Part shown: positions 4,037-37,224 of the stretch, in pieces
Position numbering within the stretch: position 1 is the first letter of the stretch
How the letters are laid out: each line of letters opens with the position of its first letter
Source of the DNA: Plasmodiophora brassicae
Lineage: Eukaryota
Reading direction: 5' to 3'
Assembly (NCBI GenBank): GCA_036867785.1
Contig: CP145419.1
Location: 806,001-870,000 of the forward strand
DNA: 64,000 nt
The notes under the pieces: generated by a model
Database searches by the model: none
Seen by the model: the letters and a program-made list of their open reading frames with translations, nothing else
Told to the model about the DNA's origin: nothing
Program-made: the position numbers and the translations under genes

Positions 4037-4277
4037 TACCTCTGTGGCTGAATATGTTACTCAGTTACCTTGCATGGCGCATGACTTGCAACTGGCGGCG
4101 AAGGGCCTGCAGCGCCTCCTTAAGTTTTGATGAGTCGCAAATCTTCTTCACTAGTAATTCTCGAAACGTGCAATCGCGACGTCCATGGTCTTACCGGATT
4201 TGATGCCATCCTTAACCGCCAGCCGCAAGACATGCGCCATGCAAGGTAACTGAGTAACGCATTCAGCCACAGGGGTA
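4037..4277. repeat. Inverted duplication of the hAT CxxH-coding segment
   Basis: 4037-4104 is the reverse complement of 4210-4277 with a few mismatches; both arms encode VAExVTQLPCMAHxLxLAxK. Confidence 0.9.
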
Positions 4278-4920
4278 GTGTGCCAGCCGCTGTCCCGTGT
4301 GCGGGTACAGCACGCGAACGAAACCCAGAATGCAATGCTTCGTCCCCCAATTCTCGTCGATGTAGTGCACCGTGCCGACGACCATGTAACCACGCTTAGC
4401 GGAAGAAGTCCACATATCGGACGTGAATCCAGGGCGCCTGTCCTTTCGGTCTGTGTTTAACAGCGCCCTGACCCTGTTCTTCTCCTCTCACCACCGATTC
4501 AGTACACGTGCGCGAACCGTATCCCGTGATGGAAGCCGGCACTCGGGTCTCAGCGAGTCACAGAACTCCACGAACTCATCCAGCTCGACAACGGTGAACG
4601 ACTGGAAATGAGTGACAATCCAGTCGATCAGTTTTCGGCCCGAGTACTCTCTGTCGACGTTGGTGAAATCAGCAGAAGGCATAACCTTCCGTTTCCCACC
4701 AACCGTCGAACCGCCTCCTTCACTCTTGAAGTAGTGTCTAGTCTTGCCCTGATTGACGGTCGGTTGCGACGGCGCGGTGTACACGTCACTGTGTTCGCTG
4801 ACGAGGTGGCGACGGTAGTATGACGTGTGTTTGACCTTGCAACGCCGCGATTTGTTCTTCGATGCACATGGAAGACAGAACCACGGGGCCACATGTCCTG
4901 CATCGTTCCCAATGACGCCA
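4151..4920 (-). pseudogene. hAT-superfamily transposase relic with BED-type zinc finger
   Basis: CLPC...RRHLVSEH (BED-like), FTVVELDEF...LRPECRLPSRDT, in-frame TGA at 4488-4490, then TSDMWTS, TVHYID, PHTGQRLA, and a deletion/frameshift to LPCMAHVLRLAVKDG (CxxH motif). Confidence 0.88.
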
Positions 4921-5137
4921 TGAACGTTGCTACTGCTCGCCGCGGCAGTCTGCCACACACAAGTCCCGAGAGTCGAGACTGCACCCACAAGTCCGCAGAC
5001 CGTCTGCAGGTCCGTGGGTGGCAGGGCGCGCTATTTATAAGTACCCACCGACCTGGTAGGCAGAAGAGTACTCGGACGCGCGACGGTACAGCTGTGCTTA
5101 GAGCGGCGCATTGTAGTCGTCGCCGGAGGCACCCGCC

Positions 5138-5476
5138 ATGAAGGTCAACACGCACGTTCGCGACAGGCAGATCGGCATCGAGTGCGGCGATGGCGTGCAG
5201 GCAGTGAAATGGCTCGGTGCGTCCATCCAATAGGGGTCCACTGGCCCGATAGCTGAACGAAGGGGCGCGCCGTCTGCAGCCGACGCCAGCCTATGTCGGT
5301 ATGACGGCGCGTTTGGCGTTAGCTTAGGCGTGCCGGTAGCCATGCGAACCGACACGAGTCAGGTTCTGGACATGACGGCGCCGATTGCGTCCTGCCTCGA
5401 ACACGGAGCCCATGTCTGGATCGTGCTGCCCGGCGACGACCGCAATTCGATCGTGCCAACGACGACGACGGAGTGA
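5138..5476 (+). CDS. Small 91-aa protein resembling the Par3/HAL N-terminal ubiquitin-like domain; 2 exons; absent from the ORF track
   Basis: Exon 5138-5216, GT-AG intron 5217-5279, exon 5280-5476 gives MKVNTHVRDRQIGIECGDGVQAVKWLADASLCRYDG...LEHGAHVWIVL, similar to the histidine ammonia-lyase N-terminus pattern (VHVRG...VPC...VGWLG..A..RY). Confidence 0.75.
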
Positions 5477-5550
5477 GGGAGCGCCCAGGCCACATCGGCA
5501 CGGGCGCGCTGTTGTTTATATAATATAAATCAATACTCTACAATTGTATT

Positions 5551-35095: not shown

Positions 35096-35768
35096 GTAGT
35101 ATTAATGTCCGGCCGGGTCCTGATGGATAACGGTCTAGTTGTGTGCGTTCTAGCCATCGCATCATCACTGATCGCCACTGCCGTCGTCGTTTACCGCTGC
35201 CGTCAGCGACAACGTCGCCACCAAGATGAAATCCAAGAACGGCGACGTCGTCACGGCGACGAAATTCTACAGGCACTGCTGGAACATGGTGAGCCCAGAA
35301 CAGTGGTCGTTGACTTTAGACCGACTAATCAGCACCCGTATGGTTTGAGTACAGCTATTTGGTAACCGTATTGTCCAGTAGTCCAGCGATCGAGTTGTAT
35401 GGGGGTACGGAGCTGTAGGCTGTGATTGCTGTAAAGCACTTGGTTTCAAATTTGCACACGCTCCGTACCCCTATAAAACTCGATCGCTGGACTACTCAGC
35501 TGTACTCTCAAACCATACGGGTGCTGATTAGTCGGTCTAAAGTCAACGACCTCTGTTCTGGGCTCAACTGATCACCATGTTCCAGCAGTGCCTGTAGAAT
35601 TTCGTCGCCATGACGATGTCGCCGTTCTTGGATTTCATCTTGGTGGCGACGTTGTCGCTGACGGCAGCGGTAAACGACGACGGCAGTGGCGATCAATGAT
35701 GATGCGATGGCTAGAACGCACACAATTAGACCGTTATCCATCAGGACCCGGCCGGACATTAGTACTAC
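35096..35768. repeat. Long fold-back: ~310-bp arms (35096-35413, 35460-35768), 46-nt loop
   Basis: Both arms encode near-identical MSGRVLMDNGL(V/I)VCVLAIASSLIATAVVVYRCRQRQRRHQDEIQERR...LEHG on opposite strands; only scattered substitutions and short indels. Confidence 0.97.
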
Positions 35769-35913
35769 TTAATCCACGGCAGCGGTCAACCCTTTCAACG
35801 GGCCGCGAGTACCGCATCCGTCATACGAGCAGTGGTTTCTGGCGTGCTGCATCTCGGCGGCGCAGCTTGCGAGCTACCTGAGCGTTAGAGGCTCGGACGA
35901 TGATATTCCGGCG

Positions 35914-36600
35914 ATGGATCCTTGCGACATAGACGATCCCTGCGACATAGGCGCATTGGAAGACAGCGCGCACCGGTCAACAACCGAAACGATGCAACTC
36001 CCTTCCGATGACGGCGAAACTGGGCATTCCGATGGTAACGATACACCGTGGGTTCCGGCACCAGCGATGACGTTCGACATCCATGTCGAAGTGAAACATT
36101 TTCTGGAAGCATACGCCAAGAAGACTGGCTTTCATGTAAGCAATTCTTACACTCCATTGCTCGGCGTTGAATGACGCTTGCTCATCGTCCCAGATCAACG
36201 TCCAGTTCAAACGTTTGCGAAGAAGGAACGCTCCATTGAATTGTTTGGCAACGACGGTGCCTGGGTGCGAGGTCTCTCCTTTTCGTATGCGCTACGCATG
36301 TTGTTATCCCTAATAGTTACCATCAGGCCAAGCGTACTGCACTTTCATGGAGCCGGACAAGAAGAAATATCATTCCATTCGGACAACGTGCACGTTGAAC
36401 ATTCCGTTCACGTTCGATGCCAAACAATACGTGGTGAAAGACGCCAAGTTCTGTCTCGTCCACACCCACATTGTGGAGCTCCCGTCGAGTAATGGAGTGC
36501 TTGCCGCTCATCAACGGGATCACACAAAGGAACAAACGTCCACGTCTACCACACAGTCGAACACCCGGTATCGGGTCCTGTCGGAAACATTTGCTCGTCT
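35914..36600 (+). pseudogene. FAR1/MuDR-type N-terminal DNA-binding domain relic
   Basis: MTFDIHVEVKHFLEAYAKKTGFHV, in-frame TGA at 36172, then C...RTTCTLNIPF...LVHTH (C...C...HxH pattern). Confidence 0.65.
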
Positions 36601-36881
36601 GACTGTTGGCGCTAAGGTCAACGAGCATTTGTACCGGCGTGCTATGTCCACGTTCACGTCGCTGGAACGGAATTCCGAAAGTACCTTTCCCGTGCCGTGT
36701 TGCAGAATCTGAGATTAAGCGTTCTGTTGTCTTACCTCCTTTACGACGCACAGCGAGTCGCGGTAGGCGTCCCGATCGTGTTGCGCGACTTTCGCGACTT
36801 GATCGACAGCAACCTGCGAATGCAAGGCTACCAGCCAGGTGCCGTTTGTGTATGCAACACGGCGTCAACTCAGCGGATCAC

Positions 36882-37224
36882 CGAACTGTTTTTCATCCCC
36901 CAACCAACGGCGCACCTTAATTATCAATGCGGTCCACAACATCTTCCTTGTAGCCTAAGACGCTTGGACCGCATTGACAAGGTGCTGGTCCTCAGATGAT
37001 GCCGGATATCTTCACATCACGGTTTGCCTGAACAAGTCCATCGTAACGGCCTCCCGTATCTCAGCGACATTGTTGGTTGGGGGATGAAAAACAGTTCGTC
37101 ATTGCGGATTACATGTTCATACCTAACCATTTCGCTGAGATGCGGGATCGGAGGCCGTTACGATGGACTTGTTCAGCAAACCGTTATATGAAGATATCCG
37201 GCCTCATTTGAGGACCAGGCACCT
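36882..37224. repeat. Interleaved inverted repeats (A...B'A'...B)
   Basis: 36882-36908 is a perfect 27-bp reverse complement of 37072-37098; ~36980-37067 is an imperfect reverse complement of ~37132-37224. Confidence 0.88.

Follow-up and report, generated by a model that had tools for sequence, protein, structure and literature searches.

A window of 64,000 nucleotides from the genome of Plasmodiophora brassicae (contig CP145419.1, here C12; G000:C12:806001-870000) carries four inverted duplications, IR1 to IR4, and two of them, IR3 and IR4, coincide with small-RNA loci published for this organism. The explanation that best accounts for these observations, to which a probability of about 0.75 may be given, is that template switching leaves fold-back scars in repeats, that these would be read through into RNA hairpins, and that the Drosha-like RNase III PbDRL would cut the hairpins into phased small interfering RNAs (siRNAs). 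The central part of this explanation, namely that genomic hairpins are the source of the phased siRNA class, is very probable. Fold-backs derived from transposable elements (TEs) are therewith the likely answer to the question of the double-stranded RNA (dsRNA) source, which has been left open for this class.

The first description of RNA interference (RNAi) in this rhizarian crop parasite, in the parts considered here, reports 21-nt phased small RNAs with a 5'-C bias, two Argonautes (PbAGO1/2) of slicer type that are said to be functional, and the in vitro dicing of dsRNA by PbDRL (PMC13547706). According to the same parts, both Dicer and an RNA-dependent RNA polymerase (RdRP) are missing, and the source of the dsRNA is stated to be unknown; with no RdRP, the origin of the siRNA precursors is left open. 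The RNAi machinery, whose absence would have counted against the preliminary description of the window, is thus present by that report. One palindromic region is shown there to give rise to microRNAs (miRNAs; legend of Fig. 2G), and the parts covered draw no connection between the phased loci and either inverted repeats or TE-derived arms. A literature search for such a link, with subscription journals and bioRxiv supplements out of reach, found only this figure legend.

An inverted-repeat scan was carried out over 864 kb of the 1,207 kb of C12, that is, over the window and 80 stretches of 10 kb, each searched alone, so that hairpins crossing the borders of stretches are missed; 70 kb of this sample were chosen because they carry published loci or paralogs. 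With a threshold of at least 40 bits and a loop of at most 1.2 kb, 34 inverted pairs were obtained, which cover 1.7% of the sampled DNA and correspond to about one per 25 kb; a few of them are pairs of terminal inverted repeats (TIRs) or of genes and not fold-backs. The same scan of a block-shuffled control of 300 kb (30 of the 81 segments) gave no fold-back. Within the window only IR1 to IR4 passed the threshold. Alignment of their arms confirmed all four at the positions proposed in the preliminary description, and there is therefore none within the host genes of the window, as it had also held.

The published small-RNA loci, compared here as lists of phased (PHAS) loci, miRNAs and hc-siRNAs that include only part of the 78,890 siRNAs, are placed on the PbJS assembly. 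Since all seven published miRNA motifs tested match C12 exactly and in the same order, C12 is the counterpart of contig Ctg_10 of that assembly; the offset between the two is about +150 as far as 354 kb, and about +5,290 from 536 kb on. After projection, PHAS21-54 falls on 35059-35777 of the window, 94% of which is covered by IR3, and the precursor of Pb-miR148 (Table S8, Ctg_10:837579-837978) falls on IR4. The mature miRNA, an exact match in the inverted arm of IR4, is antisense to the coding strand of the surrounding Mutator-like element (MULE) and pairs with 37192-37211 in the fold of the + strand. The overlap with small RNAs that the preliminary description had put forward as a check was thus found for two of the four loci, IR1 and IR2 being in no list.

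Along the contig the coincidence is much broader. All 12 PHAS loci of Ctg_10 lie within the C12 sample, and 11 of them lie on fold-backs, which cover 66-100% of each; random placement put at most five on fold-backs in 20,000 trials, and placement confined to repeats and fold-backs at most eight. Every one of the eight fold-backs scoring at least 280 bits is a PHAS locus. Repeat- or TE-derived arms are present in 10 of the 11 folded loci, while the arms of PHAS21-59 had no unfolded copy among the 40 scored of 114 candidates. The element in which the twelfth locus sits recurs without a difference on C1 and at 97-98% identity on C20, where match coordinates point to a fold-back over much of the same stretch. 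Because the calling of PHAS loci, unlike that of miRNAs, requires no hairpin, this overlap is not circular; that of miRNA precursors with fold-backs (6 of 12) is partly so. A trace of the same organization can be seen genome-wide, where 89 adjacent pairs at most 700 bp apart occur among 435 PHAS loci, compared with a mean of 9.1 and a maximum of 22 in 2,000 uniform placements, a null model that ignores the clustering of TEs and the splitting of loci. In 43 of the 89 pairs the two lengths agree within 1.25-fold, as those of two arms would, compared with 17% of random pairs, coordinates alone having been used.

The fold-backs belong mostly to repeats. Hand classification of the 34 pairs on C12, which also drew on the multi-locus entry of miR027, assigned 27 to repeat- or TE-derived sequence, placed two in what appear to be host genes (a pair involving HSP20, and a single long open reading frame, ORF) and left five undetermined, IR2 among them. 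Measured against a TE content of 14% (11-14% in the pangenome preprint), 27 of 34 has a p value of 2e-17, which bears out the enrichment expected in the preliminary description; the repeat share of the sample itself is at least 16%. The classes concerned include hAT, MULE, Gypsy, Copia, subtelomeric and other repeats. Pfam searches of 137 of the 231 reading frames around 30 fold-backs outside the window named few families, and repeat status therefore rests mainly on DNA copies. The HSP20 inverted pair (L117:5099-6169, C12:551099-552169), which has a paralog in stretch L098, is in no published small-RNA list.

Features of the window that bear on the fold-backs (positions are those of the window)
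Feature	Position	Strand	Remarks
Decayed hAT transposase fragment holding IR1	3992..4913	-	similarity to protein P0001; paralogs on C12, C13, C4
IR1 fold-back	4037..4277		arms 4037-4104 / 4210-4277; inverted copy extends to 3992
IR2 fold-back	21405..21721		arms ~21405-21556 / 21569-21721; directly 3' of a spliced TPR gene
Lsm-domain host gene	34144..34515 (start approximate)	+	PF01423, E 8e-15
Ulp1-carrying MULE relic	34697..37955	+	~3.3 kb; ~40-bp TIRs 34697-34735 / 37918-37955
Separate dispersed repeat, source of IR3	34767..35768		nested inside the left TIR of the MULE
IR3 fold-back	35096..35768		arms 35096-35416 / 35456-35768; nested inversion
IR4 fold-back	36882..37224		arms 36980-37077 / 37121-37224
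Mature Pb-miR148 (20 nt)	36992..37011	+	exact match; in the inverted arm of IR4

The four fold-backs differ widely in age. Substitutions between the arms amount to 6/255 in IR3, 8/91 in IR4, 8/68 in IR1 and 38/150 (about 25% divergence) in IR2, so that IR3 is the youngest and IR2 the oldest, and the differing divergence noted at the outset is upheld. In IR1, 60 of 68 columns are paired and the folding z score is -14.1 (none of 200 shuffles as good). Its assignment to hAT stands, as the frame at 4266-4487 (-) is 62% identical (E 1e-19) to P0001, a protein of 694 aa with zf-BED (PF02892) and hAT dimerisation (PF05699) domains; in the C13 copy of the relic, PF05699 reached E 0.003, below the cut-off. 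The arms of IR2 pair in 112 of 155 columns (folding z -12.05, none of 100 shuffles as good). Its source was sought by DNA copies, protein, Pfam and homologs, all of which were blank, and IR2 is single-copy in the genome compared (25.28 Mb in 20 contigs). The label "transposon-like" given to 21438-21690 is therefore not sustained, there being no homolog or family to attach it to. A hand count of codon positions between its arms, made with a view to a coding origin, gave 11 of 23 at third positions (p 0.11).

IR3 and IR4 lie within one MULE relic, whose family has copies on C7, C15, C20, C12, C6, C2, C3 and C1. The C7 copy includes a piece that matches MULE clusters at 0.94 in the Atlas, with a blank Pfam scan of the same piece, and the C15 copy contains Peptidase_C48 (Ulp1; E 2.7e-6); inspection by eye found no clear target-site duplication. 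On the strength of the TIRs and of these two copies, IR4 is probably in a MULE. Its arms align with 90 matches, 7 mismatches and 8 gaps, and a third, perfect pair of 27 nt joins 36882-36908 and 37072-37098. For IR3, likewise described as being in the MULE, the statement holds as far as the TIRs enclose it, but its sequence is that of another dispersed repeat, with unfolded copies at C5:485398-486163 and on C6 and C17, which is missing from the C7 MULE copy. The arms of IR3 show 293 matches, 9 mismatches and 30 gap columns. The C6 copy of this repeat (L125, C6:90801-92800) is scrambled by short tandem and inverted duplications, with a 315-bp fold-back just upstream.

Comparison with paralogs shows that the fold-backs arose locally. 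The paralogs of IR1 (C13), IR3 (C5) and IR4 (C15, C7) are unfolded at the corresponding positions, and each of the three joins a local inverted duplication to an adjacent deletion: beyond the right arm of IR1, about 190 bp of the C13 paralog (L028) are lost, the inverted pieces of IR4 stand in place of about 1.03 kb of the element, and IR3 appears as a nested double inversion relative to its C5 paralog. Two further fragments on C12, one of the Gypsy family and one of Copia, show this layout of inverted duplication plus deletion as well. At IR1, IR3, IR4 and two other loci, junction overlaps of about 0-8 nt can be read from the alignments. Family copies or their neighbours carry hairpins of their own at other positions (L007, L013, L027, L029, L125, L126). 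Together with the 27 repeat- or TE-derived pairs, these results substantiate the recurrent conversion that had been proposed.

Judging from these alignments, we infer that the window fold-backs were made in the course of repair or replication, by fold-back synthesis primed at microhomology or by template switching. Synthesis would turn back at a few bases of microhomology, copy 70-500 bp in reverse and rejoin further on, usually with loss of the intervening piece, and scars of this kind would arise repeatedly inside repeat copies. Fold-back templated inverted insertions at yeast DNA breaks are microhomology-primed and captured by end joining (PMC11724301). They resemble the P. brassicae loci as local inverted duplications from microhomology, but are mostly 5-34 bp long, whereas the arms described here measure 30-500 bp and are often nested.

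The Lsm gene upstream of the MULE relic is probably the source of read-through transcription into IR3 and IR4, for which it is a candidate by position. RNA evidence consists of contigs from three spliced RNA runs, which carry neither strand nor level. Among the matches listed, Lsm-derived contigs stop at 34838, inside the MULE element, and a strandless contig of 810 nt covers 34574-35381, from the 3' side of Lsm into the left arm of IR3 only. These contigs are compatible with read-through on the + strand, the strand of Pb-miR148, which would then be that of the transcript. RNA polymerase passing through fold-backs would thus yield long RNA hairpins, which PbDRL would cut into phased 21-nt RNAs to be loaded on PbAGO1/2; where RdRP is lacking, phased siRNAs would come chiefly from hairpins of this kind, and, with arms of TE sequence, half of the products would be antisense to related elements. 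RNA contigs of two runs also join 36042 to 37615 with an 18-nt insert that reads as an inverted piece of the MULE element, and this joint is probably that of a transcribed, internally deleted element copy with the same kind of scar.

Several observations weigh against this reading or narrow it. The overlap of PHAS loci and fold-backs rests on coordinates projected between two assemblies, and fold-backs may be called as PHAS loci the more readily because hairpin-derived reads map to both strands. None of the three kinds of published list includes IR1 or IR2, and phased siRNAs make up only 5,280 of the 78,890 published siRNA species (PMC13547706), the bulk of which may have another source. A search of the genome with the RdRP profile PF05183 gave no match, but its positive control was blank too. 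As regards an action on other elements, Pb-miR148 differs from the unfolded C15 copy at two of its positions, 9 and 11, and has no perfect target among the loci examined. Perfect 21-mers, counted against one paralog each, number only 3/323 for IR4 and 8/221 for IR1. Lastly, an intact ORF for a chromodomain Gypsy polyprotein of 1651 aa (L122:408-5363, -), with reverse transcriptase, RNase H, integrase and chromo domains, lies just upstream of the window, so that control of TEs is not complete. That fold-back hairpins silence some related TEs in trans has about even odds.

Long-read sequencing is known to produce inverted duplications as artefacts, and the loci might be fold-back chimeras in the assembly. 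The arms have nonetheless diverged by 2-25% with additional indels, a spread from IR3 to IR2 that indicates differing ages and not read chimeras; IR2 lies inside one continuous contig of the independent run X20, and the small-RNA loci of IR3 and IR4 are at the same place in an independent assembly, which leaves a negligible chance for this explanation. Alternative or abortive transposition at element ends, or hairpins that are simply paired TIRs as in miniature inverted-repeat transposable elements (MITEs) or Foldback elements, would be suggested by the location of IR3 and IR4 within one TIR element and by the few TIR pairs among the 34 (e.g., C12:308800-309716). This is quite improbable, given that arms are internal coding or sub-terminal sequence, that junctions lie away from the TIRs, and that fragments of Copia and Gypsy are folded likewise although such elements have no cut-and-paste ends. 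For the same reasons, internal junctions and folded retroelements, template switching is preferred over abortive transposition, although the preliminary description had offered both; MITEs and Foldback elements were rejected because the arms are internal and the paralogs unfolded. A bias in calling is somewhat easier to imagine, yet still improbable: TEs transcribed in sense and antisense would supply most siRNAs, and the PHAS caller would pick out inverted repeats because reads map there twice. In its favour, phased loci form only a minority, some PHAS calls do arise from multi-mapping (PHAS21-53 and -235 share length and p-value), and budding yeast derives some of its siRNAs from convergent transcripts (bioRxiv 10.1101/2019.12.12.873604). 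Against it, unfolded repeats make up at least 16% of the sample but contribute just one of the 12 PHAS loci, for which a folded twin exists, and PHAS limits follow arm limits closely. In plant-type PHAS loci the dsRNA is made by RdRP from a single-stranded, miRNA-triggered transcript; this type was rejected here, as genomic fold-backs underlie the loci and RdRP is reported to be missing from the organism.

The remaining alternatives concern function and leave the hairpin source of phased siRNAs in place. Fold-backs may be neutral scars that arise everywhere, survive only in junk DNA and are diced as any dsRNA would be, with no effect on TEs; this possibility, which shares origin and dsRNA source with the preferred explanation and differs on function only, comes a little short of even odds. 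It agrees with the lack of a G-U wobble bias over the 34 fold-backs (95 transitions on one strand and 96 on the other, with 179 transversions), with continued divergence of the arms, to about 25% in IR2, and with the poor match of old hairpins to their own paralogs. Pooled divergence from paralogs is 263/2705 (9.7%) in arms and 366/4271 (8.6%) in flanks, which also suits neutrality. Pair by pair, however, the divergence of arms does not exceed that of flanks in 8 of 9 cases and is clearly lower in 6, IR4 going the other way; this is a weak, alignment-biased test for which 9 of 12 pairs were used, two having no arm alignment and one being a duplicate of IR4. Neutrality is further disfavoured by the 149/653 perfect 21-mers of IR3 against its C5 copy, by the C20 hairpin that is 97-98% identical to an intact-looking element of two copies, and by Argonautes reported to be slicer-type and functional (PMC13547706). 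At the other extreme stands a self-building, genome-wide library of fold-backs as a transposon defence, in which hairpin relics would be kept by selection or a dedicated process as a dispersed functional analogue of piRNA (PIWI-interacting RNA) clusters, in place of these or of RdRP amplification; every invading repeat would eventually leave behind a copy folded on itself, whose read-through transcript PbDRL would dice. Extrapolated, such a library would comprise about 1,000 loci and treat DNA transposons, LTR (long terminal repeat) elements and subtelomeric repeats alike. In its favour are the density of about one fold-back per 25 kb across so many repeat classes, independent hairpins at three of seven other places of one family (from match coordinates), and the persistence of IR2 though no source copy was found. 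We consider this unlikely, as there is no compensatory or wobble signal, the density was judged without a control genome, and purifying selection in genes would also predict enrichment in repeats. The arm/flank and wobble tests neither show nor exclude selection for hairpins, and selected "memory" loci, as envisaged in the preliminary description, have not been borne out by them.

Comparable loci are known from other organisms. In maize, Mu killer, a partial inverted duplication of a transposon, is read through from a flanking gene into a hairpin RNA that yields siRNAs against the family (PMC3440606), and Ac killers are similarly described as products of alternative transposition at element ends (bioRxiv 10.1101/2020.01.07.897926). 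The P. brassicae loci share with Mu killer the inverted duplication of TE-internal sequence, in IR4 even in a probable MULE, and, by the published tables, small RNAs from IR3 and IR4, with IR1 and IR2 unlisted. Such a duplication with unfolded copies elsewhere is found for IR1 and IR4 and, with respect to its own repeat family, for IR3, but not for IR2; with IR2 set aside, none of the Mu killer-type features that could be tested was contradicted. The maize killers are single rare alleles with demonstrated heritable silencing in a plant that has RdRP, whereas in P. brassicae there are many small loci in all TE classes with internal junctions, and silencing in trans may or may not follow. In Naumovozyma castellii, which has no RdRP, palindromic loci give 74.1% of wild-type siRNA reads (bioRxiv 10.1101/2019.12.12.873604). 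The two organisms are alike in the reported absence of RdRP, in siRNA loci on palindromes (11 of the 12 PHAS loci on C12) and in a non-canonical RNase III. They differ in lineage and enzyme, P. brassicae having the Drosha-like PbDRL, 21-nt products and a 5'-C bias, and the likeness is one of locus overlap and not of read share. Since TE-killer hairpins, and palindromic siRNA loci in organisms that lack RdRP, are already on record, the designation as an undescribed TE-control system lacks support at present.

The overlap of fold-backs and PHAS loci offers a concrete answer on the dsRNA source, for which existing data would allow an immediate test. It would further imply that the loci termed "phasiRNA-like", together with many of the 234 "miRNAs", are hairpin siRNA loci, and that P. 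brassicae small RNAs may be directed by nature at repeats to a greater extent than at the predicted genes. Should both silencing and selection be confirmed, accidents of the Mu killer type would act here as a routine genome defence.

Other features were noted in and near the window. A large element (window 1-2945 together with L122:6900-10000, i.e., C12:802800-808945) carries exons of a RecQ-like DEAD helicase (PF00270) at 586-1702 (-) and a tandem array of 4.9 units of 175 bp at 1837-2698. The two parts tested recur with 100% identity near 1.48 Mb of C1, so that the element may have been mobile recently; its copies on C20, C2 and C6 seem to contain fold-backs. Its upstream ORFs, blank in Pfam, have a tyrosine-recombinase-like motif and are presumably Crypton-like. 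An ORF of 322 aa at 2867-3835 (+), with no Pfam match, is 96% identical on C17, with further copies on C20 and C13, and may be a mobile or accessory gene. The 53-bp piece at 2941-2994 is identical to the ends of a family that occurs on many contigs in same-direction pairs about 5.1 kb apart, and is probably an LTR end. Between 354 and 536 kb of C12, the offset to PbJS steps by about 5.1 kb, the size of the paired LTR-like family, a possible insertion polymorphism. Finally, an inverted pair at 16515-16648 and 25679-25815, 9 kb apart and 77% identical, has its second member beside a C2H2 zinc-finger gene and probably represents paralogous exons.

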